Part shown: piece after piece, positions 3,364-59,675 of the stretch
Layout: every line of letters starts with the position of its first letter
Position numbering within the stretch: the first letter of the stretch is position 1
Source: Escherichia coli
GTDB taxonomy: Bacteria; Pseudomonadota; Gammaproteobacteria; Enterobacterales; Enterobacteriaceae
Reading direction: 5' to 3' (one strand)
Assembly: GCF_003790525.1 (NCBI RefSeq)
Contig: NZ_CP033635.1
Length of the DNA stretch: 64,000 nt
Program-made: the position numbers and the translations under genes
The notes under the pieces: generated by a model
What the model was told of the DNA's origin: nothing
The model's database searches: none
The model's input: the letters and a program-made list of their open reading frames with translations, nothing else

Positions 3364-4728
3364 TTACGTGCAGATTTCGTAGCAAGGGATGTAGGCTGAG
3401 CCTGGCAACTTCATACGATGCTGGGCAACAAAACCCTGTAGCAGGTCATCCATACGACGCATAATCTCTTTATCGCCGTTGATTTTATAAGGACCAAACT
3501 CTTCAATGGCGCGAATACCGACTTCTTTTACGTTACCCGCCACAATACCGGAGAACGCACGGCGCAGGTCGGCAGCCAGCACTTCAACGGGTTGATCCGG
3601 GTAAAGCTTCAGATTAGCCATATTCTCGTGAGACGGCTCAAACGGCATTTGCAAATCTGGCGCAATGCGCATTGACCAGTTAAAGCTGTAGGCATCGCCT
3701 GTGTCGCGGCGATTTTCTTTCACCAGCGGCATCGATTTTTTCATCTGACGAGCGACTTCAGCGGCGTCATCAATGATGATGCGGTAATGGCGGCGCGCGT
3801 TTTCACCCAACGTATGCACGACAAACTCGTCCAGTACGCGGAAGTAGTCGGCGCTCTCTTTCGGGCCGGTGAGGAGCAATGGTAAAACCTGATCTTTGTT
3901 GGCCGGGTTCATTAAAATTCCCAGCAAATACAGCAACTCTTCTGCCGTACCCACACCGCCAGGGAAGATAATGATACCGTGAGCGATACGGACAAACGCT
4001 TCCAGACGTTTTTCGATATCCGGCATGATGATCAATTCGTTGACCAGCGGGTTAGGCGGTTCAGCGGCGATAATCGATGGCTCTGTCATACCAATAAAAC
4101 GACTGTCTTTGTAACGCTGCTGTGCGTGTCCGACCGCAGCACCTTTCATTGGCGCTTCCATCGCTCCCGGACCACAGCCGGTGCAGATATTCAGCTCACG
4201 CAGGCCCAGCTGATTCCCGACGCGACGGGCATACAAATACTCGTTTTCGTTAATTGAGTGCCCGCCCCAGCAGACCACCATATTTGGCGCTTCACCAACA
4301 TGCAGCGCGCGAGCGTTACGCAAGATGGAAAAGACCAGGTTAGTGATGTGGACGGAGTTGTCGAGATTCAGGTTGGGAAAACGAACGGTGTTATGGATTT
4401 GCCCGTAAACGAAGAGAATGTCGCGCAGAACCGCGAACAAGTTGGCCTGCAAAGCGCGAATAATTCGCCCATCGACAAAAGCCTCTTCCGGGGGATTAAT
4501 CAGTTCCAGCTTTACGCCGCGTTCACGGCGCAGGACGTTAATATCGAAATTTTCAAAACGAGACAGCAATTCTTTGCTGTTATCGGTCAAACTACCGGAG
4601 TTCAGTACGGCAAGTGAACAGTTGCGAAACAGTTGATAGAGGTCGCTGCTGGCGGTGCGTTTAAGCATATCCACTTCCAGCTGCGACAACATATCCATGG
4701 AGCCAAGCGGGCTAATATGTGTAATCAA
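3364..4728 (-). CDS. ppnN: LOG-family nucleotide 5'-monophosphate nucleosidase (YgdH/PpnN)
   Basis: 454-aa ORF with PGGxGTxEE LOG motif ([12 protein letters not shown]); conserved synteny with sdaC and queF. Confidence 0.85.
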
Positions 4729-4839
4729 GAAAAACTCCTTATGGGACGAATATCGTCATTCCCTTTGATTACAATAGCCCTGCCTGATGACCTTTCACAA
4801 CCTTCTGCGTGAATCCAGCACGCAAAATTGAGAAAAAAT

Positions 4840-5688
4840 TTATTGCCGAACCAGTCTTGTGGTCGATGGGACAAAATCGCTATTACTGCGCCACGGGTTA
4901 ATGTCCAGACCGCCACGACGGGTATAACGTGCGTAAACGCTCAATTTCTCTGGCTGGCAGAAGCGTAACAGGTCATTAAAGATGCGTTCCACGCACTGTT
5001 CGTGGAACTCGTTGTGATGGCGGAAAGAGACCAGGTAACGCAGCAGTTTTTCTCTGTCAATTTGGCGTCCACGATACTGAATTTGGATCGATCCCCAATC
5101 TGGTTGATGGGTGATCAGGCAGTTTGATTTCAGCAGGTGGCTGACGAGCGTCTCTTCTACTACTTTTTCGCCACTGGTGGCATTCTCCAGATAGTCAGTA
5201 GTGAATTCATAGTTATCGATAGTGATATCCTGGTCATCAATGCAAGTGCCATTGAAATGACCTATCGGTTGGCCTTCCAGTTCATCAAGACGATATAACG
5301 CCACGCTAACCTTACCCTGAGCGCAAGTGCTTAAGTCGCGCTCCAGCGTCTGGCGCACCTCATCCCAGTTATTAAAACGCGTCTGGTTAAAACTGTTGAG
5401 ATAGAGCTTAAAACTCTTCGACTCAATCAGATTTGCGCTGGTGTAATCAAGTTCAACATGACCGACGGCGACCTGCGGCAAACCTTTCGCATTCAGCCAG
5501 GAAAGTTCATATAGCGTCCAGATATCCGTACCGTGAAAAGGCAGGTTATCCGCTTTCAGACCCAGCGGATCGCGATTCAGACTACGCGGAACGCCTTGCA
5601 GTAGGCTGGCGTCATAGGTATCCCGGTAATCGGTTGATTTTCCAAGAGTCAGGCCCGCAAGTGCCTGATGGTTTGCATAAGAAGACAT
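4840..5688 (-). CDS. queF: NADPH-dependent 7-cyano-7-deazaguanine (preQ0) reductase
   Basis: 282-aa ORF, two-domain QueF architecture, conserved synteny. Confidence 0.9.
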
Positions 5689-5755
5689 GTTTCACCGTCA
5701 TAAACCAGATAAACTAAACGACAAGTGTATCTGGTTTAAGTGAAGAGAGAAATTA

Positions 5756-6301
5756 GTGGACGATTTGACCGCACAAGCCCTGAAAGATTTTACTGCACGC
5801 TACTGCGATGCGTGGCATGAAGAGCATAAAAGCTGGCCGTTGAGTGAGGAACTGTACGGTGTTCCTTCACCGTGCATTATTTCAACTACCGAAGATGCCG
5901 TATACTGGCAACCCCAGCCGTTTACCGGGGAACAAAATGTAAACGCGGTTGAACGTGCTTTTGATATTGTGATACAACCCACAATTCATACCTTTTATAC
6001 GACTCAGTTTGCCGGGGATATGCACGCGCAGTTTGGCGATATCAAACTGACATTGCTGCAAACCTGGAGTGAAGACGACTTCCGTCGGGTGCAGGAAAAT
6101 CTGATTGGTCATCTGGTGACTCAGAAAAGGCTAAAACTGCCGCCCACGCTATTTATCGCGACGCTGGAAGAAGAGTTAGAGGTGATCTCGGTGTGTAATC
6201 TCTCCGGTGAAGTGTGCAAAGAGACGCTGGGAACACGTAAACGGACGCATTTAGCCTCAAATCTTGCGGAATTCCTTAATCAACTTAAGCCTCTTCTGTA
6301 A
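5756..6301 (+). CDS. syd: SecY-interacting protein Syd
   Basis: 181-aa ORF divergent from queF, matches K-12 Syd length and position. Confidence 0.85.
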
Positions 6302-6320
6302 TCCAAATACCCCATCTGGT

Positions 6321-6338
6321 TGTGAGAGATCTCTTACA
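6321..6338 (+). promoter_or_regulatory. 18-bp perfect palindrome TGTGAGAGATCTCTTACA upstream of csrB (UvrY response-regulator box)
   Basis: perfect palindrome about 180 bp upstream of csrB 5' end; matches the recalled UvrY binding site. Confidence 0.6.
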
Positions 6339-6520
6339 GACTCTGTAGGAGATCGCCAGGAAATAAGCGAATACTTAAAAAGATAAGAATCGTTATTTTC
6401 ATTTAAAATCAATATATTGCTTGTCAATTCTTAACTTTCATATGAAATTTTCCTTAAGGCATTGTCTGTAAGCGCCTTGTAAGACTTCGCGAAAAAGACG
6501 ATTCTATCTTCGTCGACAGG

Positions 6521-6877
6521 GAGTCAGACAACGAAGTGAACATCAGGATGATGACACTTCTGAAGGACACACCAGGATGGTGTTTCAGGGAAAGGCTTCT
6601 GGATGAAGCGAAGAGGATGACGCAGGACGCGTTAAAGGACACCTCCAGGATGGAGAATGAGAACCGGTCAGGATGATTCGGTGGGTCAGGAAGGCCAGGA
6701 ACACTTCAGGATGAAGTATCACATCGGGGTGGTGTGAGCAGGAAGCAATAGTTCAGGATGAACGATTGGTCGCAAGGCCAGAGGAAAAGTTGTCAAGGAT
6801 GAGCAGGGAGCAACAAAAGTAGCTGGAATGCTGCGAAACGAACCGGGAGCACTGTGAATACAGTGCTCCCTTTTTTT
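6521..6877 (+). ncRNA. csrB: CsrB regulatory RNA (CsrA-sequestering sRNA)
   Basis: about 360 nt with roughly 20 reiterated CAGGATG / AGGA(N) motifs on the plus strand, ending in a GC hairpin (gggagcactg...cagtgctccc) plus T7 run; non-coding (minus-strand ORFs here are spurious). Confidence 0.9.
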
Positions 6878-6922
6878 ATTCCTGCTATCCTTCGCGGCAG
6901 TTTTTCTTATTGAGGTTGCTTT

Positions 6923-7252
6923 ATGACCACTCATGACCGCGTTCGTTTCCAGTTGCAGGCGCTTGAAGCGTTACTGCGTGAACATCAGCACTGGCGAAAC
7001 GATGAACCCCAGCCGCATCAATTTAATAGTACCCAACCGTTCTTTATGGACACCATGGAACCACTGGAGTGGTTGCAGTGGGTGCTGATCCCGCGAATGC
7101 ACGATTTGTTAGAAAACAACCAGCCGTTACCGGGCGCTTTTGCCGTTGCTCCCTATTATGAAATGGCGCTGGCGACGGACCACCCGCAACGCGCGCTTAT
7201 TCTGGCTGAGCTGGAAAAACTGGATGCTCTTTTTGCGGATGATGCGAGCTAA
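6923..7252 (+). CDS. yqcC: DUF446 protein YqcC
   Basis: 109-aa ORF, stop overlaps truC start; conserved synteny. Confidence 0.8.
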   Translation: MTTHDRVRFQLQALEALLREHQHWRNDEPQPHQFNSTQPFFMDTMEPLEWLQWVLIPRMHDLLENNQPLPGAFAVAPYYEMALATDHPQRALILAELEKLDALFADDAS

Positions 7253-8034
7253 TGCTGGAAATACTCTATCAGGATGAATGGCTGGTTGCGGTAAATAAAC
7301 CCTCCGGCTGGCTGGTTCACCGCAGCTGGCTGGATCGCGACGAGAAAGTAGTGGTCATGCAAACCGTGCGTGACCAGATAGGCCAGCATGTGTTTACTGC
7401 TCATCGTCTGGACCGACCCACTTCTGGTGTGTTGTTGATGGGATTATCCAGCGAGGCCGGACGGCTGCTGGCACAACAGTTTGAACAGCACCAAATCCAG
7501 AAACGTTACCATGCGATTGTGCGCGGCTGGTTGATGGAAGAAGCGGTGCTGGATTATCCACTGGTGGAAGAACTGGACAAAATCGCTGATAAATTTGCCC
7601 GCGAAGATAAAGGCCCGCAGCCAGCAGTGACGCATTATCGCGGTCTGGCGACCGTAGAAATGCCGGTAGCGACCGGACGTTACCCGACCACGCGCTACGG
7701 CCTGGTGGAACTGGAGCCGAAAACCGGACGTAAGCACCAGCTCCGTCGCCATCTTGCCCATTTGCGCCACCCGATTATTGGCGACAGCAAACATGGTGAT
7801 TTACGCCAGAATCGCAGCGGTGCTGAACATTTTGGCCTTCAGCGGTTAATGCTGCATGCCAGTCAGTTGTCATTGACGCATCCTTTTACTGGCGAGCCGC
7901 TGACTATTCACGCGGGCCTGGACGACACCTGGATGCAGGCGTTATCACAATTTGGCTGGCGGGGTCTGCTTCCTGAAAATGAAAGGGTTGAGTTCAGTGC
8001 GCCATCGGGTCAGGATGGAGAGATAAGTTCCTAA
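7252..8034 (+). CDS. truC: tRNA pseudouridine(65) synthase
   Basis: 260-aa ORF with RluA-family HRLDRPTSG catalytic motif. Confidence 0.9.
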
Positions 8035-8051
8035 TCCAGGGAGAAAACGGT

Positions 8052-8501
8052 ATGGCGGAAATTGGTATTTTTGTCGGCACTATGTACGGAAATTCGCTGT
8101 TAGTGGCGGAAGAAGCGGAAGCAATTCTGACCGCGCAGGGCCACAAAGCAACGGTATTTGAAGATCCTGAATTAAGCGACTGGCTGCCCTATCAGGATAA
8201 GTATGTTCTGGTGGTTACGTCCACGACCGGGCAGGGCGACCTTCCTGATTGCATTGTGCCGCTCTTTCAGGGAATTAAAGATACCCTGGGCTTCCAGCCG
8301 AATCTGCGTTATGGCGTGATTGCGCTCGGCGACAGTAGTTATGTGAATTTCTGCAATGGCGGCAAACAGTTCGATACCTTGTTGCAGGAACAGAGCGCTC
8401 AGCGAGTGGGAGAAATGCTGTTGATTGACGCCAGTGAGAACCCGGAACCGGAAACGGAATCAAATCCGTGGGTCGAACATTGGGGCACGCTGTTGTCCTG
8501 A
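8052..8501 (+). CDS. yqcA: flavodoxin-like protein YqcA
   Basis: 149-aa ORF with flavodoxin fold signature (TSTTGQGD). Confidence 0.85.
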
Positions 8502-8553
8502 TACGTTCAGCGAGCGGTAAATGCCGTTTTAGCAGTGCTGAATCGAATCTTTT

Positions 8554-8610
8554 CAGGCAAATGCCAGTAAAAACTGCTTCATAGCGCGGATTTTTACTGG
8601 CGTTTGCCTG
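8554..8610. repeat. long inverted repeat / hairpin (20-bp arms, 1 mismatch) downstream of yqcA
   Basis: caggcaaatgccagtaaaaa ... tttttactggcgtttgcctg; no flanking U-run on either strand. Confidence 0.5.
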
Positions 8611-8935
8611 GAGTCAAGCGATCCATTTCATACTCTTCTTTATTTCTTCGATTTAACCCTTCCTTTCTTGTTTTTGTTTTCATTTCCGTGAAGTGGATTC
8701 CACCGTCCAGGGCTAATGCCAAAATCGGGCCTCATTGAACGCATTAATGTTGTGTTGTTGCACGGTGAGCCGCTATGGCGCGCTTTTTATACTGCTATTG
8801 CCAGATATAAACACGCGCCGTATTCGGCGAACGACCTATAAAAACGGCAAAAAACACCCTACGTCACCTCTGATTTCCTGGCGATGTCGCAGTCCAGAGT
8901 GAGCGTGGCTAACGCGAATTTTCAGGAGTGCAACA

Positions 8936-10288
8936 ATGAGTTCTTTAAGTCAGGCTGCGAGCAGTGTGGAAAAACGCACGAATGCTCGTTACTGGATAGT
9001 GGTGATGTTGTTTATCGTCACATCCTTCAACTACGGCGACCGCGCTACGCTCTCTATCGCCGGTTCGGAAATGGCCAAAGATATCGGCCTTGATCCTGTG
9101 GGAATGGGCTATGTGTTCTCTGCTTTCTCATGGGCTTATGTTATCGGGCAGATCCCTGGTGGTTGGTTGCTGGATCGTTTTGGTTCAAAACGCGTCTACT
9201 TCTGGTCGATCTTTATCTGGTCGATGTTTACCTTGCTGCAAGGCTTCGTCGATATCTTTAGTGGATTCGGCATTATCGTTGCCCTGTTTACGCTGCGCTT
9301 CCTGGTCGGGCTTGCTGAAGCGCCCTCTTTCCCCGGCAACAGTCGCATTGTTGCGGCCTGGTTTCCGGCGCAGGAAAGGGGAACGGCGGTGTCGATTTTT
9401 AACTCCGCTCAATACTTCGCAACGGTGATCTTCGCGCCGATTATGGGCTGGCTGACGCATGAAGTGGGCTGGTCACACGTCTTTTTCTTTATGGGCGGTC
9501 TGGGCATTGTCATCAGCTTTATCTGGTTGAAAGTCATCCACGAGCCAAATCAACATCCGGGTGTAAATCAGAAAGAGCTGGAGTACATCGCCGCGGGTGG
9601 CGCGCTGATCAATATGGATCAGCAAAACACCAAAGTTAAAGTGCCGTTCAGCGTGAAGTGGGGGCAGATCAAACAGCTGCTCGGGTCACGGATGATGATC
9701 GGCGTTTATATCGGTCAGTACTGTATCAACGCCCTGACTTACTTCTTTATTACCTGGTTCCCGGTTTATCTGGTGCAGGCGCGTGGGATGTCGATTCTGA
9801 AAGCGGGCTTTGTGGCTTCCGTTCCGGCGGTTTGCGGTTTTATCGGCGGTGTGCTGGGTGGGATTATTTCCGACTGGCTGATGCGCCGCACGGGATCGCT
9901 GAACATTGCGCGTAAAACACCGATCGTAATGGGCATGTTGCTGTCGATGGTGATGGTGTTCTGCAACTACGTCAACGTTGAGTGGATGATCATCGGCTTT
10001 ATGGCGCTGGCCTTCTTCGGTAAGGGCATCGGGGCGCTGGGTTGGGCAGTAATGGCAGATACCGCGCCAAAAGAGATCAGCGGTCTTTCCGGTGGCCTGT
10101 TCAACATGTTCGGTAACATTTCTGGCATCGTCACGCCAATCGCAATTGGTTATATCGTTGGCACGACTGGCTCCTTTAATGGGGCGCTGATTTATGTTGG
10201 TGTTCATGCCTTAATCGCGGTACTGAGCTACCTGGTGTTGGTGGGCGATATCAAGCGTATCGAGTTGAAACCTGTTGCGGGGCAATAA
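8936..10288 (+). CDS. gudP: D-glucarate/D-galactarate MFS transporter
   Basis: 450-aa 12-TM MFS protein heading the gudPXD operon. Confidence 0.9.
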
Positions 10289-10289
10289 G

Positions 10290-11630
10290 ATGGCGACACA
10301 ATCCAGTCCTGTTATTACTGATATGAAAGTCATTCCGGTGGCCGGGCATGACAGCATGTTGCTTAATATTGGTGGTGCACATAACGCATATTTCACCCGC
10401 AATATTGTGGTACTCACCGATAACGCCGGGCATACCGGCATTGGTGAAGCGCCGGGCGGAGAGGTGATTTATCAGACACTGGTCGAGGCTATTCCGATGG
10501 TGCTGGGCCAGGAAGTTGCGCGCCTGAATAAAGTGGTTCAGCAGGTGCATAAAGGTAATCAGGCAGCCGATTTTGATACCTTCGGCAAAGGTGCCTGGAC
10601 TTTTGAATTGCGCGTTAATGCCGTGGCGGCGCTGGAAGCCGCCTTGCTTGACCTGCTAGGTAAGGCGCTGAATGTTCCGGTCTGCGAACTGTTAGGGCCA
10701 GGCAAGCAACGTGATGCTATTACCGTTCTCGGTTATCTGTTTTATATCGGTGATCGGACCAAAACCGATCTTCCTTATCTGGAAAATACTCCGGGCAACC
10801 ATGAGTGGTATCAATTGCGGCATCAGAAAGCGATGAACAGCGAAGCCGTTGTGCGTCTGGCGGACGCCTCACAGGATCGCTATGGCTTTAAAGATTTCAA
10901 ACTTAAGGGCGGAGTGTTACCTGGCGAGCAAGAAATCGACACTGTTCGTGCATTGAAGAAACGCTTCCCGGATGCGCGGATTACCGTTGATCCCAACGGA
11001 GCATGGCTGCTTGATGAAGCTATTTCTCTGTGCAAAGGGCTGAATGATGTTCTCACCTATGCCGAAGATCCGTGTGGCGCAGAACAGGGTTTCTCCGGAC
11101 GTGAAGTGATGGCGGAATTTCGGCGGGCGACCGGCTTGCCCGTCGCGACTAATATGATCGCCACCAACTGGCGCGAAATGGGCCATGCGGTGATGCTCAA
11201 TGCGGTAGATATTCCACTTGCCGACCCGCACTTCTGGACGCTTTCCGGTGCAGTCCGCGTAGCGCAGCTTTGCGACGACTGGGGGCTGACCTGGGGCTGC
11301 CATTCCAATAACCACTTTGATATCTCTCTGGCGATGTTTACCCATGTGGGCGCGGCGGCACCGGGTAATCCTACCGCTATCGATACCCACTGGATTTGGC
11401 AGGAGGGCGATTGTCGCCTGACCAAAAATCCGCTGGAGATTAAAAATGGAAAAATTGCCGTTCCTGATGCGCCCGGTCTGGGCGTGGAACTGAACTGGGA
11501 GCAGGTACAAAAGGCGCATGAGGCCTATAAACGTCTGCCTGGCGGTGCGCGTAACGACGCGGGCCCGATGCAGTACCTGATCCCCGGCTGGACCTTTGAC
11601 CGTAAACGTCCCGTTTTCGGCCGTCATTGA
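10290..11630 (+). CDS. gudX: glucarate dehydratase-related protein
   Basis: 446-aa enolase-superfamily paralogue of gudD; ATG at 10290 right after gudP stop (ORF track start 10275 likely an extension). Confidence 0.85.
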
Positions 11631-11650
11631 TTTTGAAAAAGGACATAAAG

Positions 11651-12991
11651 ATGAGTTCTCAATTTTCGACGCCTGTTGTTACTGAAATGCAGGTCATCCC
11701 GGTGGCGGGCCATGACAGTATGCTGATGAATCTGAGTGGTGCACACGCACCGTTCTTCACGCGTAATATTGTGATTATCAAAGATAATTCTGGTCACACT
11801 GGGGTAGGGGAAATTCCCGGCGGCGAGAAAATCCGTAAAACGCTGGAAGATGCGATTCCGCTGGTGGTGGGTAAAACGCTGGGTGAATACAAAAACGTTC
11901 TGACGCTGGTGCGTAATACATTTGCCGATCGTGATGCCGGCGGGCGCGGTTTGCAGACATTTGACCTGCGGACCACTATTCATGTGGTTACCGGGATAGA
12001 AGCGGCAATGCTGGATCTGCTGGGGCAGCATCTGGGGGTTAACGTGGCATCGCTGCTGGGCGATGGTCAACAGCGTAGCGAAGTCGAAATGCTCGGTTAT
12101 CTGTTCTTCGTCGGTAATCGCAAAGCCACACCGCTGCCGTATCAAAGCCAGCCGGATGATCAATGTGACTGGTATCGCCTGCGTCACGAAGAAGCGATGA
12201 CGCCGGATGCGGTGGTGCGCCTGGCGGAAGCGGCATATGAAAAATATGGCTTCAACGATTTCAAACTGAAGGGCGGTGTACTGGCCGGGGAAGAAGAAGC
12301 AGAGTCTATTGTGGCACTGGCGCAACGCTTCCCACAGGCGCGTATTACCCTCGATCCTAACGGTGCCTGGTCGCTGAACGAAGCGATTAAAATTGGTACA
12401 TACCTGAAAGGTTCGCTGGCTTATGCAGAAGATCCGTGTGGTGCGGAGCAAGGTTTCTCCGGGCGTGAAGTGATGGCAGAGTTCCGTCGCGCGACTGGCC
12501 TGCCGACCGCAACCAATATGATCGCCACCGACTGGCGGCAGATGGGCCATACGCTCTCCCTGCAATCCGTTGATATCCCGCTGGCGGATCCGCATTTCTG
12601 GACGATGCAAGGTTCGGTACGTGTGGCGCAAATGTGCCATGAATTTGGCCTGACCTGGGGTTCACACTCTAACAACCACTTCGATATTTCTCTGGCGATG
12701 TTTACCCATGTAGCCGCTGCTGCACCGGGTAAAATTACTGCTATTGATACGCACTGGATCTGGCAGGAAGGCAATCAGCGTCTGACCAAAGAACCGTTTG
12801 AGATCAAAGGCGGGCTGGTACAGGTGCCGCAAAAACCAGGATTGGGCGTAGAAATCGATATGGATCAGGTGATGAAAGCCCACGAGCTGTATCAGAAACA
12901 TGGGCTTGGTGCGCGTGACGATGCGATGGGAATGCAGTACCTGATTCCTGGCTGGACGTTTGATAACAAGCGCCCGTGCATGGTGCGTTAA
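11651..12991 (+). CDS. gudD: D-glucarate dehydratase
   Basis: 446-aa enolase-superfamily ORF; ATG at 11651 with AAGGA RBS (track start 11627 is an extension). Confidence 0.9.
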
Positions 12992-13002
12992 GACTGAAAA
13001 CA

Positions 13003-13030
13003 AAAACCGGCTCTGTCAGGAGCCGGTTTG
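13003..13030 (+). terminator. gudD terminator hairpin (aaaccggct...agccggttt)
   Basis: 9-bp stem immediately after gudD stop, between convergent gudD and barA. Confidence 0.5.
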
Positions 13031-13113
13031 AGACTGATGCCAAACGCAAAATTGCCTGTTGCGCTACGTATCAGGCCAACATACTTTTTAATTCATTGAA
13101 TTTAATTGGTTTT

Positions 13114-13148
13114 GTAGGCAGGATAAGGCGTTAACGCCGCATCCGGCA
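13114..13148. repeat. REP (repetitive extragenic palindrome) element
   Basis: gtaggcaggataaggcgttaacgccgcatccggca; classic REP consensus. Confidence 0.7.
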
Positions 13149-13221
13149 TAAACACAGGCACTTTGTCACCAGTCTGAAACCAGCTTCATAAAAAGCCGAT
13201 TGCTACTCGACAAGACGTCCG

Positions 13222-15978
13222 TTACCCGAGAATTTTGCTGGCTTCGCGCGCTACATTATCCATCTCGTCTAACAGTTCCAGCAGCTCCGGCTCCAAATCT
13301 TCTTCTTTAGTACCGCTACGTAGCTGTTGTTCGATCAGTTGGCAGAGATTTTTCATACGCGGCACACCGCTATAGCCGCAACTGCCATGCAGTTTATGAA
13401 TCAAATCAACCAGGCCTTCCGGGTTTTCTCCAACCAGCTGTTCCTCAACTTTGTTGCGAACTTCAGGCAGGAAATCGAGTAACATTTGCAGCATATCGCG
13501 CGCTAAATCGGTTTTTCCTGCTGCCTGGCGTAGTGCCAGTTGCCAGTCGAGGGTCGCATTCGGGTTCACCACAATTTCGTTGACTTCGGGCGTCACGACG
13601 CGAGAGGAAATACCGCTGCCAGGCTTATAGCGCAACAACAAATTATGCAATCGCTCTTCTTCAATCGGTTTCGCCAGATAATCGCTCATCCCTGCGCCAA
13701 GCAGCTTCTCTTTTTGCCCGGCCATTGCATGCGCCGTTACCGCGATAACCGGCGTTTGTTGCTGATGGGGGAGCTGGTGGATGAGTTCGCAGGCCCGAAT
13801 GCCGTCCATGTCCGGCATTTGAATATCCATTAAGATCAAATCGAACGGCATCTGTTTCGCCCGTTCAACCGCCTGATGCCCGCTATCGCAAAGTTCCACA
13901 TGTTGCACCATATCTTCCAGCAATGCGCCGATAAGTTTCAGGTTAGCGGGGTTGTCATCAACCGCCATGACTGTCATTGCCAGCTTACTTTCATCGGTTA
14001 CAGGCAAAAGCGTGTTTTGTTTGTGATGACAAAATTCCGTCAGGGCAGGTAACAGGCGCGTAGGTGTTAATGGTTTCAGCAGACACGCGCCGATACCATC
14101 TTGCTTAAGTTTTTCAGCATTGACTTGTGCATGGCAAGGAAGTGCCAGCATCAGAAAATCGGTCATCGATACTGCTTTCGCTAATCGCTCATGTTGCATT
14201 GTTAGCGGCTCGCGGAAGGTCACCGCGATGCCTAACAACATCATGTCGTAATGCGCGGGAGGCAGCGCGGAGAACGTTGGGCTATAAACCACTTCCAGCG
14301 GCGTTTCACTTAAAATATCCAGCGTGCATTGCGCTGCTGCGGAGTTTGGTTCGACATAGGCCAGGCGCTTACCGGCGAGGCACTGGGTGGATGGCCCTTC
14401 GATAATAATGTTCGGGTTCAGATCGAGATTAATGTGGAACCAGAAAGTTGAACCACGATTCGGCTGGCTATGGAACGAAATATCACCGCCCATTTCATTA
14501 ACCAGTTTTTGTGTAATCACCAGCCCCAGCCCGGTGCCACCATGACGGCGGGAAATACTGGCATCAGCCTGTCTGAAGGCCTGGAATAAGCGCGATTGGT
14601 CGCGTTCAGGAATACCAATGCCGGTATCCCGAATCTGCACTTCAATTTGCACTTTGGTATTACTCAGCGCACGTTTTTCTACCAGAATATCAATGTTGCC
14701 ATTCTCGGTGAATTTAATTGCATTCCCCACCAGGTTAGTGATGATTTGCTGTAATCGTAGTGGGTCGCCGATAACGTTATCAGGCACGTCGCTTTTAATA
14801 TTGAGCGTCAGTTCCAGCCCTTTATCGTGAGAAGAATGTGCCAGCAGGGTAACGACTTCATCCAGCGTGCTGCGTAGTGGGAATGGAATACTTTCCAGAA
14901 TCAGCTTACCTGCTTCCAGTTTCGAGAAGTCGAGAACATCATTAATAATTGCCAGCAAATTATTTGCCGAACGTTCAATCGTATTCAGGTGATCGCGCTG
15001 CGTTGGTGTTAATTCTGTTTTCAGCGTCAGGCGGGTAAAGCCAATAACACCATTCAGTGGTGTACGCAGCTCGTGTGACATATTTGCCAGAAACTCGGAT
15101 TTAATACGCGCCGCTTCCTGGGCGCGCTTTTTCGCCAGATCCAACTCAACGTTCTGAATTTCCATCTGCTCCAGCGTCTCACGCAGATCGGACGTCGCCT
15201 GGTCGATATTGTGTTGCATCTCTTCGTGATAAGCCGCCAGCGACATTGCCATCGAGTTGATACCGTTTTTCAGCATATCCAGCTCGCCGAGCATAAATCC
15301 TTCCACCCGGCTGTCGAGTTGCCCGCGACGGATGCGGTCGACGGTATTCACCATGTTGCGAATCGGGCCGGTAACATCGCGCATTAAGCGCCAGCCAAAA
15401 ATAAGCGCAATACCGATACAAAACAGCATCATCACGCTGGAAATAAAGATCTCTTTATATTGCTGCAAGCGAACCGATTTAAGATCCAGCTCCAGCGCAA
15501 TATATCCCAGCATATTTTGACTATTTTTGGCATCGCTACTGGGCGATTCGTCGGGGGAGTAACTTTCAGAAATAATCGGCGTGCGGAGGATCATTATATC
15601 GCCGTCACGAGTGACAGTGAGCTGGCGAGGAAACGGCACGTTGCTGCCGAGCTGCATTGATGAGGGATCAAGATGAAAATTGGAGGTGACAAAGAGTCGG
15701 TTATTTTCATCATAAACCGAAATCGCGCGAACAATATCAGAATGGCGACGATGCAGTACGCTTATTAACTGACCGATAGATTCGCGATTTTGCAGACTCA
15801 TGCCATATTCAGTAGAAACTGCAAGCGGCTCAATAATGCTGGCACCGGCATCTTCCAGTTGACGCTGCAAGTCGTTATAGCGATGCACGACGAAAAAGAT
15901 ACTCAGCAATAAACCAATAAGGACGGTCGGTGCCAGGATCAGAATCATCATGCGTGCGCGCAGGCTGTAGTTGGTCAT
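13222..15978 (-). CDS. barA: hybrid sensor histidine kinase BarA
   Basis: 918-aa ORF with HAMP, HisKA (SHELRTPLN), HATPase, receiver and HPt domains. Confidence 0.95.
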
Positions 15979-16034
15979 GGAGTTCCGTTATGGGACAATT
16001 AAGGTCACACTGTTAAATTGAGAAAGTCTCGCCA

Positions 16035-17336
16035 ATGGCGCAATTCTACTCTGCAAAACGACGCACGACGACGCGTCAGATCATAACCGTTTCAGTCAAT
16101 GACCTCGACTCTTTTGGTCAGGGCGTGGCGCGACATAACGGCAAAACGTTATTTATTCCTGGATTATTGCCACAGGAAAACGCGGAAGTTACTGTTACTG
16201 AAGATAAAAAACAGTACGCCCGCGCTAAAGTCGTACGCCGGTTAAGCGATAGCCCGGAACGCGAAACGCCACGCTGCCCTCATTTTGGCGTATGCGGTGG
16301 CTGTCAGCAACAACACGCCAGCGAGGATTTACAGCAGCGAAGCAAAAGTGCGGCACTCGCCCGATTAATGAAACACGAAGTCTCTGAAGTGATCGCCGAT
16401 GTTCCCTGGGGCTATCGCCGTCGCGCGCGTTTAAGTTTGAACTACTTACCGAAAACACAGCAACTTCAGATGGGGTTTCGCAAAGCGGGCTCCAGTGACA
16501 TTGTCGACGTTAAACAATGCCCCATTTTAGTGCCCCAACTTGAAGCATTGCTGCCCAAAGTCAGGGCATGCCTGGGCAGCTTACAAGCTATGCGCCATCT
16601 TGGTCATGTTGAACTGGTACAGGCAACCAGCGGCACGCTGATGATTTTGCGCCATACCGCACCGCTAAGTTCGGTAGATCGCGAAAAACTGGAACGCTTT
16701 TCGCATTCTGAAGGCCTGGATCTGTATCTCGCCCCCGATAGTGAGATACTCGAAACCGTCTCTGGTGAGATGCCCTGGTATGACTCAAACGGGTTGCGCT
16801 TAACTTTTAGCCCGCGCGATTTTATTCAGGTCAATGCGGGTGTGAACCAAAAAATGGTAGCGCGTGCGTTGGAATGGCTGGATGTACAACCTGAAGATCG
16901 CGTACTGGATCTGTTCTGCGGTATGGGCAACTTTACACTGCCATTGGCGACACAAGCTGCCAGTGTGGTGGGTGTAGAAGGCGTTCCGGCGCTGGTGGAA
17001 AAAGGCCAGCAGAATGCGCGTCTTAATGGCTTACACAATGTGACGTTTTATCACGAAAATCTTGAAGAAGATGTCACAAAGCAGCCGTGGGCGAAAAACG
17101 GCTTCGATAAAGTGTTGCTGGACCCGGCGCGAGCAGGTGCCGCAGGTGTTATGCAGCAAATTATAAAACTGGAACCTATTCGTATAGTTTATGTATCCTG
17201 TAATCCTGCAACGCTGGCTCGGGATAGCGAAGCGTTATTAAAAGCAGGATATACCATTGCGCGACTGGCGATGCTGGATATGTTCCCACACACGGGACAT
17301 CTGGAATCGATGGTACTTTTCTCGCGCGTTAAATAG
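16035..17336 (+). CDS. rlmD: 23S rRNA (uracil1939-C5)-methyltransferase
   Basis: 433-aa ORF with TRAM domain, Fe-S Cys cluster ([11 protein letters not shown]) and SAM-MTase fold. Confidence 0.9.
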
Positions 17337-17383
17337 TTACGATTTGCCGATTTCGGCAGGTCTGGTCCCTAAAGGAGAGGACG

Positions 17384-19618
17384 ATGGTTGCGGTAAGAAG
17401 TGCACATATCAATAAGGCTGGTGAATTTGATCCGGAAAAATGGATCGCAAGTCTGGGTATTACCAGCCAGAAGTCGTGTGAGTGCTTAGCCGAAACCTGG
17501 GCGTATTGTCTGCAACATACGCAGGGGCATCCGGATGCCAGTCTGTTATTGTGGCGTGGTGTTGAGATGGTGGAGATCCTCTCGACATTAAGTATGGACA
17601 TTGACACGCTGCGGGCGGCGCTGCTGTTCCCTCTGGCTGATGCCAACGTAGTCAGCGAAGATGTGCTGCGTGAGAGCGTCGGTAAGTCGGTCGTTAACCT
17701 TATTCACGGCGTGCGTGATATGGCGGCGATCCGCCAGCTGAAAGCGACGCATACCGATTCTGTTTCCTCCGAACAGGTCGATAACGTTCGCCGGATGTTA
17801 TTGGCGATGGTCGATGATTTCCGCTGCGTGGTCATCAAACTGGCAGAGCGTATTGCTCATCTGCGCGAAGTAAAAGACGCGCCGGAAGATGAACGCGTAC
17901 TGGCGGCAAAAGAGTGCACCAATATCTACGCGCCGTTGGCGAACCGTCTTGGGATTGGGCAACTGAAATGGGAGCTGGAAGATTACTGCTTCCGTTATCT
18001 CCACCCGACCGAATACAAACGCATCGCAAAACTGCTGCATGAACGCCGTCTCGACCGCGAACACTATATCGAAGAGTTTGTCGGCCACCTGCGCGCTGAG
18101 ATGAAAGCTGAAGGCGTTAAAGCTGAAGTGTATGGTCGTCCGAAACACATCTACAGCATCTGGCGCAAAATGCAGAAAAAGAACCTCGCCTTCGATGAGC
18201 TGTTTGATGTGCGTGCGGTACGTATTGTCGCCGAGCGTTTACAGGATTGTTATGCCGCACTGGGGATAGTGCACACTCACTATCGCCACCTGCCGGATGA
18301 GTTTGACGATTACGTCGCTAACCCGAAACCAAACGGTTATCAGTCTATTCATACCGTGGTTCTGGGACCAGGTGGCAAAACCGTTGAGATCCAAATCCGC
18401 ACTAAACAGATGCATGAAGATGCAGAGTTGGGTGTTGCTGCGCACTGGAAATATAAAGAGGGCGCGGCAGCTGGCGGCGCACGTTCGGGACATGAAGACC
18501 GGATTGCCTGGCTGCGTAAACTGATTGCGTGGCAGGAAGAGATGGCTGATTCCGGCGAAATGCTCGACGAAGTACGTAGCCAGGTCTTTGACGACCGGGT
18601 GTACGTCTTTACGCCGAAAGGTGATGTCGTTGATTTGCCTGCGGGATCAACACCGCTGGACTTCGCGTACCACATCCACAGTGATGTCGGACACCGCTGC
18701 ATCGGGGCAAAAATTGGCGGGCGCATTGTGCCGTTCACCTACCAGCTGCAGATGGGCGACCAGATTGAAATTATCACCCAGAAACAGCCGAACCCCAGCC
18801 GTGACTGGTTAAACCCAAATCTCGGTTACGTCACAACCAGTCGTGGGCGCTCGAAAATTCACGCCTGGTTCCGTAAACAGGATCGTGACAAAAACATTCT
18901 GGCTGGACGGCAAATCCTTGATGACGAGCTGGAACATCTGGGGATCAGCCTGAAAGAAGCAGAAAAACACCTGCTGCCGCGTTACAACTTCAATGATGTC
19001 GACGAGTTGCTGGCGGCGATTGGTGGCGGGGATATCCGTCTCAATCAGATGGTGAACTTCCTGCAATCGCAATTTAATAAGCCGAGTGCCGAAGAGCAGG
19101 ATGCCGCCGCGCTGAAACAGCTTCAGCAAAAAAGCTACACGCCGCAAAACCGCAGTAAAGATAACGGTCGTGTGGTGGTAGAAGGTGTCGGTAACCTGAT
19201 GCACCACATCGCGCGCTGCTGCCAGCCGATTCCTGGAGATGAGATTGTCGGCTTCATTACCCAGGGACGCGGTATTTCAGTACACCGCGCCGATTGCGAA
19301 CAACTGGCGGAACTGCGCTCCCATGCGCCAGAACGCATTGTTGACGCGGTATGGGGCGAGAGCTACTCCGCCGGATATTCGCTGGTGGTCCGCGTGGTGG
19401 CTAATGATCGTAGTGGGTTGTTACGTGATATCACGACCATTCTCGCCAACGAGAAGGTGAACGTACTTGGCGTTGCCAGCCGTAGCGACACCAAACAGCA
19501 ACTGGCGACCATCGACATGACCATTGAGATTTACAACCTGCAAGTGCTGGGCCGCGTGCTGGGTAAACTCAACCAGGTGCCGGATGTTATCGACGCGCGT
19601 CGGTTGCACGGGAGTTAG
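17384..19618 (+). CDS. relA: GTP pyrophosphokinase ((p)ppGpp synthetase I)
   Basis: 744-aa RelA/SpoT-family ORF; synteny rlmD-relA-mazEFG. Confidence 0.95.
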   Translation: MVAVRSAHINKAGEFDPEKWIASLGITSQKSCECLAETWAYCLQHTQGHPDASLLLWRGVEMVEILSTLSMDIDTLRAALLFPLADANVVSEDVLRESVGKSVVNLIHGVRDMAAIRQLKATHTDSVSSEQVDNVRRMLLAMVDDFRCVVIKLAERIAHLREVKDAPEDERVLAAKECTNIYAPLANRLGIGQLKWELEDYCFRYLHPTEYKRIAKLLHERRLDREHYIEEFVGHLRAEMKAEGVKAEVYGRPKHIYSIWRKMQKKNLAFDELFDVRAVRIVAERLQDCYAALGIVHTHYRHLPDEFDDYVANPKPNGYQSIHTVVLGPGGKTVEIQIRTKQMHEDAELGVAAHWKYKEGAAAGGARSGHEDRIAWLRKLIAWQEEMADSGEMLDEVRSQVFDDRVYVFTPKGDVVDLPAGSTPLDFAYHIHSDVGHRCIGAKIGGRIVPFTYQLQMGDQIEIITQKQPNPSRDWLNPNLGYVTTSRGRSKIHAWFRKQDRDKNILAGRQILDDELEHLGISLKEAEKHLLPRYNFNDVDELLAAIGGGDIRLNQMVNFLQSQFNKPSAEEQDAAALKQLQQKSYTPQNRSKDNGRVVVEGVGNLMHHIARCCQPIPGDEIVGFITQGRGISVHRADCEQLAELRSHAPERIVDAVWGESYSAGYSLVVRVVANDRSGLLRDITTILANEKVNVLGVASRSDTKQQLATIDMTIEIYNLQVLGRVLGKLNQVPDVIDARRLHGS

Positions 19619-24392: not shown

Positions 24393-24433
24393 GTCTGACT
24401 TTATCTGATTTAAAAATGCCAGCCTTCGGGCTG

Positions 24434-25859
24434 TAATGCCAGTCAGTTAAGCAACTGACTGGCTCTTTTTCGGGGCTGTGGGGTATTTCCAGGGCCTCTC
24501 CTTTACCACTCTCGGGAAGGCCCTTTCCCTTCTTGTCGGTAATTTCACAAGTTGTCCCATACTTGCAAGATCGCGCATCAGCTCCGGTATACGTCCCGGT
24601 GAAGCGCCCTGCAATGTCATCAGCATTCTCATCACCATTCCACATGATTCTGAGAAACTCAGTTGATTCGGCCAGTAACCTTTCAGATATTCCGCCATTT
24701 TAATCATCTGATATCTCACCAGATTATAAGCCAGTAAGACACCCCACAGCTCTTGCTCCACAAGCTCCGGTTTTTTACTTCTCAGCGTCAGCCTGCTCAG
24801 TTGCATCGTCTGTTTTATCTCCCTGTATCCCAGTTCGATTTCCCAGCGATGACTGTACAGATCCGCCATTTCTCCTCCGGGGAAGCGCATGGCGTCCGTC
24901 ATCGACGTCAGCAGATGGCAGACTTTTCCTTTGCGCGTCACGGTCAGCAGGCGGGCTGTCACTTCATTTCCCAGTCCCGGCCACTTTTTTCGTGCCTGCG
25001 GGCTGGTTTTCAGCTTCACCAGATGATCGCCTTTACCCAGTTTTCTGATCTCTTCATATTGCGCTCCCTTTCTGAGAGGTATCATCCAGTGGCGGTGTTC
25101 TCCCGCCAGGCTCCAGGCATTTAACAGTCCCAGTGAGTAATAACCTTTATCCATTAACGTCAGAGTGTTATCGCCGGTTTGTTCTATAAGTTGCTCAGCA
25201 AGCTCATTTTCGCTGTTCTTCATCGTGCCGAAGGCTGCAGCCGTCAGCAGATGGCTGGTCAGTTCCATCTGGCAGACCATTTTGACCTGCGGGTAGAGCG
25301 CCGGGTTCCCGGCATGTGTCTGGCGGGGGAAGGCTGCATCGTTCTCTGGTGTATCCGGTGTGCGCCAGAACACACCATCGATGGCCAGCAGGGTCAGGCC
25401 GCACCAGTGCGGATGCGGCGTGGCGTTATGCCAGAGCTGCGCTGTTTTCGTGAACACGCGGCGGACAGCCTCACTTCCCAGGCGCTGGCGGGCCTGAATA
25501 ACGGCACTGGGGGCAACGAAGGGGCGATTGCCCGGCAGCATGATGTCCAGGCGATTCACAATCTGGTGAAGAGGTTCTTTACGCTCAAGCGCCATGCCAA
25601 CAATACACCAGACCATCATTTCGAGGGGAAGACGGCGCTTGCGTAGCGTTACAGTACCTGATTCGGCAAGGCAACGAGAGATGAGTTCGGGGTCGAGGTA
25701 ATCCCCCAGAGAAGTCAGTGGGTTACGCAGAGAATCGTAACGGGATACCAGATCAAGAGCCTGTCCAATGTGCATAAAAAAATCCGGAAACAAGTGAGCG
25801 TTTCCGGATTCTTACACAGCCACTGGATCGGTCAACTGATCCTTAACTGATCGGCATTA
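24434..25859 (-). mobile_element. IS4 insertion sequence
   Basis: about 1426 bp; terminal imperfect IRs (taatgccagtcagttaag / cttaactgatcggcattac); flanked by direct repeat cagccttcgggctg (13-14 bp); contains DDE transposase. Confidence 0.9.
24447..25775 (-). CDS. insG: IS4 transposase
   Basis: about 442-aa IS4-family DDE transposase ([15 protein letters not shown]...); track start 25793 is a short extension. Confidence 0.9.
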
Positions 25860-25891
25860 CAGCCTTCGGGCTGGCATTTTTTATGGCTGAG

Positions 25892-26764
25892 TTACCAGCG
25901 GCCAGACGCGCCGCCACCGCCAGAAGAACCGCCACCTCCGTTAAATCCGCCGCCAGTTGAGCCGCCACCAGAACCGCCGCTGTCTGAATGATAACTTCTA
26001 CCTGATGCTTTTTTCTGTGGGACACATAACCAGGTAAAGACCATAATGATGGTGAAAGCAAAAAAGAAGGAAAATACAGCAATGGAAAAAGTTTGATCGG
26101 AGAACAGGAATAAATCTATAAGATAGACTGTTGAAATACAAACACTGCTTTTAAATGCCCGACAAAAATTATTGCCTTGATGAAAAAACCAGAAAGGGAA
26201 GAACATCACTGCAAATACCCAAAAAATAGCAAAGTAGTAATGATCACTGGAAGACGCTGATTCACTTTCTGAAGGATTAGACGAATATTGGTGTTGTGAA
26301 GTGAGTTGGTTATTCAAAGCGATTATAGCTAATTCTAATCCCTTAGCTAATTTTTGTTTTTTAAAGGCGGGTATCATGATGCTACGGATGATATTGCCAG
26401 CCAGAGCATCGGTTACCTTTTCTTCCAGCCCATAACCTACCTGGATGCGGACAGTACGATCCGACCAGGCAACAATGATCAGTATCCCATCATTACGTTT
26501 GGCATCTCCTAAACGCCAATTGTCAAAAACTCTTGTAGCATATTGTTCAATAGAATCGTCTCCGGTGGATGGCACTATTAATACAGCGACCTGTGCCCGT
26601 GTTTTTTGTGTAATATCCTGCAGCTGTTGTGTTAGTGATTGTTGTTCAGACGTGCTTAAGGTACCAGTAATATCGGTCACCTGTTGGCGCAGCTCCGGCA
26701 CAGCAATTTGCTGGGCAAGCACAGGAAGGCACCATAAAGTGAGTAGAAAAAGGATTATACGCAT
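25892..26764 (-). CDS. ygcG: TPM-domain membrane protein YgcG
   Basis: 290 aa from MRIILF...; signal peptide, TPM domain, TM segments, C-terminal Gly/Ser tail ending GGGGASGRW. Confidence 0.8.
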
Positions 26765-26769
26765 AACGA

Positions 26770-27918
26770 TCACCAACGGTCGGATGAACCGCCGCCTCCT
26801 GAAGAACCGCCGCCACCGCGGAAAGAATTTTTCGACGAAGAGCGAGAATGAGCATTACGATTCCCCGTTTTCCTGTTGCTTTTTTCTCCTGACCCCAGCT
26901 TAAGATTGCCAGTAAATTTGGCCACAATGATCAGCAGAACGATGCCAGCAATGGTTATTGGGCCGATAAAATGATCAATTAACCCAATAATTGTTGAGAT
27001 GAATGCTATATCTTTATTACTGGCGAATACCAGGCACCATCCCACAACAATTATCAGCAGCACGACAAACAATGAGTTTCGTTCGGATTGAGAAACCTGC
27101 TGAGTCGTCTTTTGTTTTTTCACTTTAGCGTTTTTATTTTTTGGGGCCAGCATCATAGGAAATACGCGATACATATGAAAAATTACCGCGAGACGCTGCC
27201 AGCAGGTTGCTGCGAAAAATAAACTAAAACAAACGAGCGATACCCGCCGAATGATGACATCATCCTGAAAGAAGAAAAACCAGACCATAGGAGTAATCAT
27301 CGATATCATCCATATGCCAGGCCCGGGACGGCTGGTAAATCGCCAGAGGACAACGATGGCAACGATCATCAGTAATGTCCAGGCAAGACATGGCAGCGAG
27401 CGTTGCGGATTAGCAAACAGATGATTGGCTAAAGCATCCAAAGGGCTAAGATTCGCTTTTATATAGGTAAACTGTGCGATGCCTTCAATTCCCTGCGTTA
27501 ACCCGGAGAAGAGATTATTTTTTTTGAATTCCGGTTGCATATGGTAATGAACAATTTGCGCAGCTTGTTCCGGTGGCAGCATCTCTTTCAGTCCATGCCC
27601 AATCTTCATTGACGCCAGCCCTTCCGGCCAAACGACGAGAATTAAGATACCTTCGCCGTACCGCTTCTCTCCAACGGGTTTCCAGTGATATAACCCGTAG
27701 CTCTGAGAGGCTGCAAGTTTAATGTTTTTGCCCCCTGTGGTCGGCGTAACCAACACGGCCACCTGGAAGTGGTTTTGCTGCTCGAGAGTCTGTAATTGTT
27801 GATTTAAAGCAGTTTGTTCTTCTGTCGTTAATGTCCCGGTTAAGTCAGTTACTGAAGGCAATTGTTCAGCGAATGCCTGGAAACCATATAGCATCAGAAG
27901 TAAGAGAAAAATACGCAT
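26770..27918 (-). CDS. TPM-domain membrane protein, divergent paralogue
   Basis: 382 aa; signal peptide, divergent TPM-like domain, several TM segments, Lys-rich linker, C-terminal [15 protein letters not shown]. Confidence 0.7.
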
Positions 27919-27932
27919 TTCAATTCCTTTTG

Positions 27933-28826: not shown

Positions 28827-28839
28827 AGAACTTCCCCGC

Positions 28840-29442: not shown

Positions 29443-29614
29443 GTCTATGTCCCTTTTAATTAATTCCTTAAAACATAATACGCCGCTTCATTTTATTCTT
29501 TATGATCTCATCCACTTTTTGCCTTAAACCTGCCTGTAACAGAATGTTAATAAGACATGATTGTTGTGGCAGGATCTGCAATAATTAACAATTATCCACT
29601 TCACAGAGAATGCT

Positions 29615-30286: not shown

Positions 30287-30371
30287 TTTGATTATTCATC
30301 ATTAATATTTAACGTTCAGGTTGAAAAACAATCGCCCCGTTTTACAGGGGCGATGCAAGATAGTGACGGGA

Positions 30372-31379: not shown

Positions 31380-31404
31380 GACGAGGATCCGTAATTCAAA
31401 ACCC

Positions 31405-34184: not shown

Positions 34185-34244
34185 ATAACCCTCTAATTCA
34201 TTGTTATTTCAGTAAAAGCCTCACATTCGTGAGGCTGTCTGGTA

Positions 34245-35786
<1,542 letters not shown>

Positions 35787-35805
35787 TTATAAAAATTGCT
35801 AAAAT

Positions 35806-35879: not shown

Positions 35880-35929
35880 TAAATGTGACAGGCACGACAA
35901 ATCGGGTTACAGATACAACAGCAGGATCA

Positions 35930-36850: not shown

Positions 36851-36870
36851 AAAGGCTCCAATATACTAAT

Positions 36871-59661: not shown

Positions 59662-59675
59662 TAAAGGACTATCTC

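Follow-up and report, generated by a model that had tools for sequence, protein, structure and literature searches.

csrB, its upstream UvrY-type repeat and barA match the K-12 reference in an Escherichia coli strain resembling SMS-3-5

Results

Organization of the csrB-barA region

The 64-kb stretch of Escherichia coli DNA analyzed here (the window) carries the gene order syd-csrB-yqcC-truC-yqcA-gudPXD-barA-rlmD, which it shares with K-12 and SMS-3-5 and which reads in reverse relative to the K-12 map. The segment from 6321 to 15978 starts at the first base of an inverted repeat upstream of csrB and ends with the initial base of the barA start codon (Table 1). Aligned to K-12, positions 4036-18035 show 97.9% identity and only 3 gaps, and positions 6290-6900 are 100% identical to SMS-3-5 and to at least 19 other genomes. 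With 100% identity where compared, the source strain is, as judged by this segment, nearly identical to SMS-3-5. A preliminary description of this DNA had placed csrB, the repeat and barA together in the window; all three are present and are intact by every sequence test applicable.

Table 1. Features of the csrB-barA segment. Positions are those of the window; promoter-relative positions refer to the csrB +1, which was taken from the K-12 annotation.
Feature	Position	Strand	Remarks
18-nt near-palindromic inverted repeat TGTGAGAGATCTCTTACA	6321-6338	+	Predicted UvrY-P binding site; -191 to -174 from csrB +1 (6512)
Extra half-site TGTAGGAGA	6344-6352	+	5 bp downstream of the 18-mer; seen in the sequence
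IHF-like site AATCAATATATTG	6407-6419	+	Matches WATCAANNNNTTR; -105 to -93
Putative csrB promoter	6477-6505	+	-35 TTGTAA 6477-6482, 17-nt spacer, -10 GATTCT 6500-6505; +1 = 6512
csrB small RNA, 369 nt	6512-6880	+	Mapped from the K-12 annotation
barA, tripartite sensor histidine kinase, 918 aa	13222-15978	-	918-codon ORF

The sensor kinase gene barA

The barA gene is located between gudD and rlmD, the site at which both K-12 and SMS-3-5 annotate barA, and it is divergent from rlmD as in K-12. Its product belongs to the BarA/GacS/VarS family and is identical to K-12 BarA (b2786), with 0 of 918 residues changed, and the 37 nucleotide differences that separate the two genes are all synonymous. The Pfam domains, all scoring above cut-off, follow the same order as in K-12: sCache_4 (residues 31-177), HAMP (198-248), HisKA (293-357), HATPase_c (404-518), Response_reg (670-780) and Hpt (828-910). 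The phosphorelay of BarA has been described previously (PMC4682653), and its residues His302, Asp718 and His861 are present in the same contexts as in K-12. The alignment thus agrees with the earlier view of barA as an intact gene.

The csrB RNA and its GGA motifs

A search with the Rfam model RF00018 (CsrB; gathering score 71) matched 6521-6880 on the plus strand with a score of 383 bits (E=2e-111), spanning model positions 1-356 of 356. K-12 csrB (b4408; RF00018 CsrB/RsmB; Zere et al. 2015, PMC4682653) is equal in length to the window copy, shares its terminator hairpin and -35/-10 region, and is likewise flanked by syd and yqcC. The preliminary description counted about 20 GGA motifs; the alignment gives 22 GGA triplets in the window copy and 22 in K-12, and no single-nucleotide difference removes any of them. 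This density is the maximum for the window, in which a 369-nt stretch contains on average 5.2 GGA (sd 2.6), and it also exceeds the 12.2 (sd 2.8) obtained when csrB's own bases are shuffled. The predicted minimum-free-energy fold puts 11 of the triplets in hairpin loops and leaves another 8 unpaired, with the remaining 3 mostly paired; the Rfam consensus structure likewise places GGA in 11 hairpin loops. A terminator scan identified an intrinsic terminator consisting of a stem of 11 bp, 7 of them G-C (6845-6870), followed by TTTTTTT.

The window and K-12 differ by eight SNPs over 589 nt, all of them outside the repeat, the half-site, the -35/-10 hexamers and the GGA motifs. Four are within csrB itself: C>A at 6563 brings the sequence closer to the Rfam consensus, G>A at 6700 displaces one GGA by 1 nt, C>T at 6770 converts a G-C pair to G-U, and G>A at 6851 converts a G-U pair in the terminator to A-U. 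The other four surround the IHF-like site and are considered below. None of the eight is predicted to matter, and near-identity to K-12 CsrB suggests that the window RNA would bind and sequester CsrA.

The inverted repeat upstream of csrB

The 18-mer is identical to its K-12 counterpart, so the repeat is indeed intact relative to the reference, as had been proposed. It is not the perfect palindrome that it was called: its reverse complement is TGTAAGAGATCTCTCACA, which leaves 2 letters mismatched and 8 of 9 arm pairs matching, and the literature terms the repeat 'nearly perfect' (PMC4682653). Its center falls between 6329 and 6330, or -183/-182 from the csrB +1. In K-12, DNase I footprints of UvrY-P and a ChIP-exo site were found on the same sequence, centered at -183/-182 (PMC4682653). 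With both sequence and position equal to those of the K-12 footprint, the 18-mer is, on these grounds, the UvrY-P upstream activating site. A scan of the 64-kb window with TGTRAGNNNNNNCTYACA, allowing up to 1 mismatch, returned the csrB site, an exact match, and no further UvrY-type boxes. The extra half-site downstream of the repeat, reported for both E. coli and Salmonella csrB (PMC4682653), is shared with K-12, and its TGTnnGnnAT pattern is invariant across 12 Enterobacterales promoters, a conservation that the method used to find the loci does not impose.

Within E. coli, the 18-mer is near-invariant over approximately 5,425 complete genomes. The 38-mer surrounding it was found exactly in 4529 of 5425 genomes, and about 330 genomes lack an exact copy of the 30-mer at 6320-6349. 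Mutations in the palindrome were considered as the cause of the missing 30-mer and were set aside, as the variants sampled, including the common variants of the 38-mer, fall outside the 18-mer in all but one genome. They comprise the E. coli B-type change T>C at 6342, which falls in the spacer of 5 bp, and substitutions of G by T or A at positions 6318 and 6319. The exception, A1.S1.18, carries a substitution and a 1-bp deletion at the GATC of the 18-mer, which could be an assembly error.

Conservation extends beyond the species. In 11 other loci, which were located via the 18-mer and represent 10 named Enterobacterales species and 1 unclassified metagenome-assembled genome, the CsrB model match begins 164-184 nt downstream of the repeat. 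An identical 18-mer, comparable to the GacA/VarA/SirA boxes of other Gammaproteobacteria, is present in at least 120 stretches of species genomes, from genera that include Citrobacter, Enterobacter, Klebsiella, Pantoea, Erwinia, Dickeya, Serratia, Edwardsiella, Vibrio, Photobacterium and Shewanella, and a CsrB-family RNA lies downstream of it wherever Rfam detects one. Vibrionaceae loci differ in that the distance from the 18-mer is 141-281 nt as compared to about 183, the G-containing arm occurs in either orientation, and csrB may be present in several or in tandem copies. The window is of the Enterobacteriaceae type, to which these differences in distance, orientation and copy number do not apply.

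The putative promoter and the IHF-like site

The hexamers TTGTAA and GATTCT probably constitute the -35 and -10 elements of csrB, as an alignment of 12 species shows no variation in the -35 TTG or the -10 T6 and almost none at the -10 A2. A sigma-70 consensus scan upstream of csrB yielded no strong promoter, a result that was not counted against this assignment because the csrB promoter is activator-dependent. Two TGTAAG sequences, at 6467 and 6478, were considered as extra UvrY half-sites within the promoter-proximal cross-link region; promoter sequence is the better reading of both. The copy at 6478 overlaps the -35 TTGTAA, whose TTG does not vary between species, and the copy at 6467 is conserved in Escherichia and Citrobacter only. 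Across the window TGTAAG is not enriched, with 19 occurrences observed and 22 expected.

Previous work placed a putative IHF site between two UvrY cross-link regions and found that UvrY binding and csrB activation are optimal only with IHF (PMC4682653). The 13-mer listed in Table 1 would correspond to that site, and the columns for its core TCA and TT are kept in the alignment of 12 species. Four SNPs relative to K-12 cluster in or beside it (6413, 6416, 6420 and 6425), two in the NNNN spacer and two in the 3' flank, leaving the match to WATCAANNNNTTR complete. Half of the eight differences from K-12 are thereby packed into 13 bp (-99 to -87), with no differences in the remainder of the 210-bp intergenic region.

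Discussion

The segment is almost certainly the canonical E. coli arrangement of csrB, UvrY box and barA, with the elements in the window present and, as far as alignment can tell, matching the reference. Calling it expected core biology was an apt assessment, as the parts match K-12, and what is found here is already known, ordinary and well-described biology. The result matters little beyond confirming a reference-type csrB, UvrY-binding site and barA in an SMS-3-5-like E. coli strain. The one correction of substance concerns the claim that the BarA-UvrY-CsrB circuit is fully intact. While this holds for barA, csrB and the repeat, it overreaches the data for the circuit as a whole: a tblastn search of the 64-kb window with K-12 UvrY did not find uvrY and returned only the receiver domain of BarA (13669-13977, 29% identity). 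On the K-12 map, the gene is about 0.9 Mb distant. Because uvrY is outside the window, intactness of the circuit is a matter that reaches beyond a single window. The designation of csrB as the downstream target of BarA needs a similar adjustment, since the two do share the window, but csrB is a transcriptional target of UvrY and not directly of BarA.

The literature on this system provides the mechanism by which these parts would act. BarA would sense short-chain carboxylates (acetate, formate) and autophosphorylate at His302, and the phosphoryl group would then pass to Asp718 and His861 within BarA and on to Asp54 of UvrY, whose gene lies elsewhere in the genome. UvrY-P would bind the 18-nt inverted repeat ~183 bp upstream of csrB and, with IHF bending the intervening DNA, would activate the weak csrB promoter. 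The ~22 GGA motifs of the resulting CsrB RNA, many of them in hairpin loops, would sequester CsrA dimers from their mRNA targets. We infer that the parts work as their K-12 counterparts do and that the remainder of the genome carries intact uvrY and csrA.

Other readings of the locus can be weighed against this one. Short palindromes can arise by chance, and the 18-mer could in principle be such a palindrome, or the site of another factor, with no role in csrB control; nothing else speaks in favor of this. The repeat occurs once in the window, where 0 copies are expected by chance (100 shuffles), is the sole match to the UvrY-type pattern in 64 kb even with 1 mismatch, is identical to an experimentally footprinted UvrY-P site (PMC4682653), and holds a fixed distance and orientation relative to CsrB in the 11 other loci. 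As far as sequence evidence can refute an explanation, this one is already refuted, and its likelihood is negligible. A second possibility accepts the UvrY-P site and locates the difference from K-12 at the IHF-like site, where the SNP cluster would alter IHF binding and make csrB inducibility quantitatively unlike that of K-12. The concentration of differences in an otherwise identical intergenic region is in keeping with this, as are the contribution of IHF to UvrY binding and csrB activation (PMC4682653) and the finding that the same spot varies in other E. coli, with strain G749 lacking the T of ATCAA. The window allele nevertheless retains the full consensus match, with two of the SNPs at unspecified NNNN positions, two located 3' of the motif and none altering a column conserved in the 12 species, and an effect on inducibility is unlikely.

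It could also be that, despite intact parts in the window, the circuit is broken elsewhere, for example by a lesion in uvrY, csrA or ihf, such that csrB is poorly expressed. Defects in uvrY occur in both natural and laboratory lineages of E. coli, and the position of uvrY outside the window leaves room for such a lesion. Against this, the differences between the window barA and that of K-12 are 37 synonymous and 0 non-synonymous, and the UvrY box is unchanged, a pattern in keeping with selection still acting on the pathway in this lineage; a break elsewhere is highly improbable. Continued function of a K-12-type circuit is the preferred reading, and within it a further layer of control can be imagined. 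The Dam target GATC occurs both at the center of the UvrY repeat (6328-6331) and at the half-site (6351-6354), 23 bp apart, and 11 out of 12 Enterobacterales csrB promoters retain the one at the half-site. If the methylation state of both GATCs, for example hemimethylation following replication, modulated UvrY-P binding, Csr control would be coupled to the cell cycle or to Dam activity. Such a role is very unlikely, and the simpler reading is that GATC is merely part of the half-site TGTGAGAGATC recognized by UvrY. The UvrY site of E. coli csrC, TGTGAGACATTGCCGATA, is without GATC (PMC4682653), and, among 13 papers containing csrB, GATC and Dam, the titles and abstract openings of the 10 listed do not address Dam methylation at the csrB UvrY site.

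In the closest genomes, RefSeq leaves csrB unannotated, and the only feature recorded under the csrB match is syd. Because RefSeq lacks csrB in these genomes, its location in the window is useful as an annotation note.

The csrB control region

The 18-mer TGTGAGAGATCTCTTACA upstream of csrB occurs once in the window and had no match in 100 dinucleotide-preserving shuffles of it. The preliminary description called this repeat a perfect palindrome, but its reverse complement, TGTAAGAGATCTCTCACA, differs at two letters, with one of nine arm pairs mismatched (arm position 4, G on one side versus A on the other), and the palindrome is therefore only near-perfect. Relative to a +1 at 6512, the repeat occupies positions -191 to -174, and its centre falls at -183/-182. 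The same sequence at the same position was termed an "18 nt nearly perfect palindrome" by Zere et al. 2015 (PMC4682653), who found that only phosphorylated UvrY protected it from DNase I and that its cross-linking to UvrY in vivo depended on barA. They also described a further, partial site (TGTAGGAGA) 5 bp downstream of it.

Two GATC (Dam) sites lie 23 bp apart, one at the repeat centre (6328-6331) and one at the adjacent half-site (6351-6354). Of 12 Enterobacterales csrB promoters, 11 retain the half-site GATC, and Dam methylation could in principle affect UvrY binding through these two conserved sites of the UvrY box. This is highly improbable: the csrC UvrY site lacks GATC (PMC4682653), which argues against a general role of Dam methylation, and among the papers searched none on Dam methylation at the csrB UvrY box came up.

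Optimal UvrY binding and csrB activation require IHF (PMC4682653), and in that paper a putative IHF site lies between the two UvrY cross-link regions, one upstream and one promoter-proximal; the 13-mer fully matching WATCAANNNNTTR probably corresponds to it. Four differences from K-12 MG1655 (6413, 6416, 6420 and 6425) cluster here, two in the unspecified NNNN positions of the motif and two immediately beyond its 3' end, such that the consensus match is retained. That this cluster tunes csrB inducibility in the window's lineage is conceivable, if unlikely. With the comparison loci L005 and L006 included, 6407-6425 stands out as a small hot spot of polymorphism among E. coli strains. Six positions in ∼23 bp at the site differ among the window, K-12, G749 and 2020CK-00188, and in G749 the T of the ATCAA core is missing (AAACAA). 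A sigma-70 consensus scan found no csrB promoter, which is explained by the weakness of the assigned -35 and -10 hexamers; such hexamers fit an activator-dependent promoter.

Coordinates of features in the window
Feature	Position	Strand	Basis or remark
UvrY repeat	6321-6338		18-mer
Partial UvrY site	6344-6352		Sequence match to site of PMC4682653
IHF-like site	6407-6419		Pattern match
csrB -35 (TTGTAA)	6477-6482		Predicted
csrB -10 (GATTCT)	6500-6505		Predicted; spacer 17 nt
CsrB model (RF00018) match	6521-6880	+	383 bits, E=2e-111, full model
csrB difference	6563		A vs K-12 C; agrees with Rfam consensus
csrB difference	6700		A vs K-12 G; one GGA displaced by 1 nt
csrB difference	6770		T vs K-12 C; G-C pair to G-U
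csrB difference	6851		A vs K-12 G; terminator-stem G-U pair to A-U
csrB terminator	6845-6870		Terminator scan; 11-bp stem, then seven T
barA	13222-15978	-	918-codon ORF; K-12 comparison and Pfam
hok/sok locus, chromosomal	52931-53225		Toxin-antitoxin
Rfam sok match	52931-53088		111 bits, cut-off 59
Hok/Gef ORF	53073-53225		50 codons
IS4-family (IS421-like) element	53231-54601		Insertion sequence
Its inverted arms	53231-53269, 54563-54601		39 nt, 90% complementary
Its ORF	53296-54414	+	372 codons
Complete type I-E cas operon	within 54769-64000		cas3, casA-E, cas1, cas2; CM2 and SMS-3-5 annotation
CRISPR array	from 63427		After cas operon, past window end

The csrB RNA

The annotated csrB of K-12 (369 nt) maps to 6512-6880, and the Rfam match far exceeds the RF00018 gathering score of 71. 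From 6302 to 6890, which takes in csrB and its control region, the window differs from K-12 by eight single-base substitutions, none of them in the repeat, and by no indels. The "about 20" GGA motifs of the preliminary description were counted as 22, equal to K-12, with 21 at the same positions. This number is the window maximum against a background of 5.2 per 369 nt (sd 2.6), and shuffles of csrB composition gave 12.2 (sd 2.8). In the minimum-free-energy fold, hairpin loops hold 11 GGA, another 8 are unpaired elsewhere and the remaining 3 mostly paired, in keeping with the hairpins that the Rfam consensus structure shows. In the closest genomes RefSeq annotates no csrB, and syd is the sole feature under the match to 6290-6900.

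BarA and the extent of the circuit

BarA is identical to its K-12 counterpart in protein sequence, and all 37 nucleotide differences in the gene are synonymous, a pattern that indicates purifying selection. The Pfam domains sCache_4, HAMP, HisKA, HATPase_c, Response_reg and Hpt follow in this order, all above cut-offs. The relay runs from His302 to Asp718 to His861 and on to Asp54 of UvrY (PMC4682653); the three BarA residues are all present in the same contexts as in K-12.

In the mechanism of PMC4682653, BarA would sense acetate, formate and other carboxylates and autophosphorylate, passing the phosphoryl group to UvrY by phosphorelay; UvrY-P would then bind the repeat at -183, IHF would bend the DNA between repeat and promoter, csrB would be transcribed, and the GGA motifs of CsrB would titrate CsrA. 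With csrB, the cis site and barA present, these parts presumably work in this way. The BarA-UvrY-CsrB circuit had been described as apparently fully intact, which holds for csrB, barA and the cis site. Apart from noise, a tblastn search of the 64-kb window with K-12 UvrY returned only the BarA receiver domain (13669-13977, 29% identity, E=8e-7). On the K-12 map, uvrY is found at 1.995 Mb, some 0.9 Mb away from barA. Since uvrY lies outside the window, a fully intact circuit cannot be concluded from this sequence, which shows no more to be intact than the circuit's two ends and its cis site. The locus is well-described, already known core biology in reference form, and the expectation of core biology was borne out.

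Genomic setting and conservation

The span previously assigned to the repeat and barA, 6321-15978, is exact. The segment 4036-18035 aligns in reverse orientation to K-12 2913000-2927000 (97.9% identity, 3 gaps), with the order syd, csrB, yqcC, truC, yqcA, gudP, gudX, gudD, barA (opposite strand), rlmD and relA, as in K-12 and SMS-3-5. None of the six genes that separate csrB from barA is known to act in the circuit; the closeness of the two (∼6.3 kb) is a plain property of the E. coli map.

All but one of 5426 complete E. coli genomes contain region 6290-6900, which is 100% identical in SMS-3-5 and at least 19 others. The remaining genome gave no match, and one of the matches is to a record classified as plasmid. 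Most genomes share the window's form of the 38-mer 6316-6353 (4529 of 5425 exact, 894 with one mismatch, 2 more divergent). Sampled variants, G>T at 6318, G>A at 6319 and T>C at 6342 (E. coli B type), lie outside the 18-mer, which among those sampled was changed only in strain A1.S1.18.

Beyond E. coli, the exact 18-mer occurs in at least 120 stretches of a species-genome collection, the matches listed including Enterobacterales, Vibrionaceae, Shewanella and others. Among these, 11 loci have an Rfam CsrB match downstream (Citrobacter, E. albertii, Klebsiella, Enterobacter, Pluralibacter, Serratia, Pantoea, Erwinia, Edwardsiella, Dickeya and a metagenome-assembled genome labelled "Proteobacteria"), with the G-containing arm distal in all and 164-184 nt from repeat end to model start, versus 183 in the window. 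In Vibrio, Photobacterium and Enterovibrio, by contrast, repeat-CsrB distance is 141-281 nt and orientation varies. When 12 Enterobacterales promoters were aligned, setting aside the 18-mer because the loci were found through it, the conserved columns were TGTnnGnnAT of the half-site, TCA and TT of the IHF-like motif, TTG of the -35, and A2 and T6 of the -10; these coincide with the named elements and are unaltered in the window. Two Enterovibrio loci carry tandem CsrB-family RNAs (L030, 1681-2846, ∼550 nt apart; L058, 149-1237, ∼470 nt apart), one copy being preceded at ∼280 nt by the exact E. coli 18-mer. In two Shewanella loci (L039, L040) that have the exact 18-mer, no CsrB match reached the Rfam gathering score; the RNA that follows the box there may lack a model.

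Other features of the window

The IS421-like element lies between hok/sok and cas3, upstream of the type I-E cas3. It has no annotation at the same place in SMS-3-5; chicken isolate CM2 carries it, with a transposase annotated as frameshifted. Repeats of the CRISPR array, at least 10 in number, recur every 61 nt, and each reads GTGTTCCCTGCGCCAGCGGGGATAAACCG. Across 43000-64000, the best non-clonal genomes are only ∼96% identical. By SMS-3-5 annotation, ∼24400-37000 is accessory relative to K-12 and holds three things: an IS4 copy adjoining eno; LemA and TPM-domain genes, one of them a pseudogene; and a cluster for sucrose utilisation (kinase, porin, PTS IIBC, sucrose-6-phosphate hydrolase, LacI-type regulator); 18000-42999 is covered to at least 80% by only 839 of 5425 genomes.
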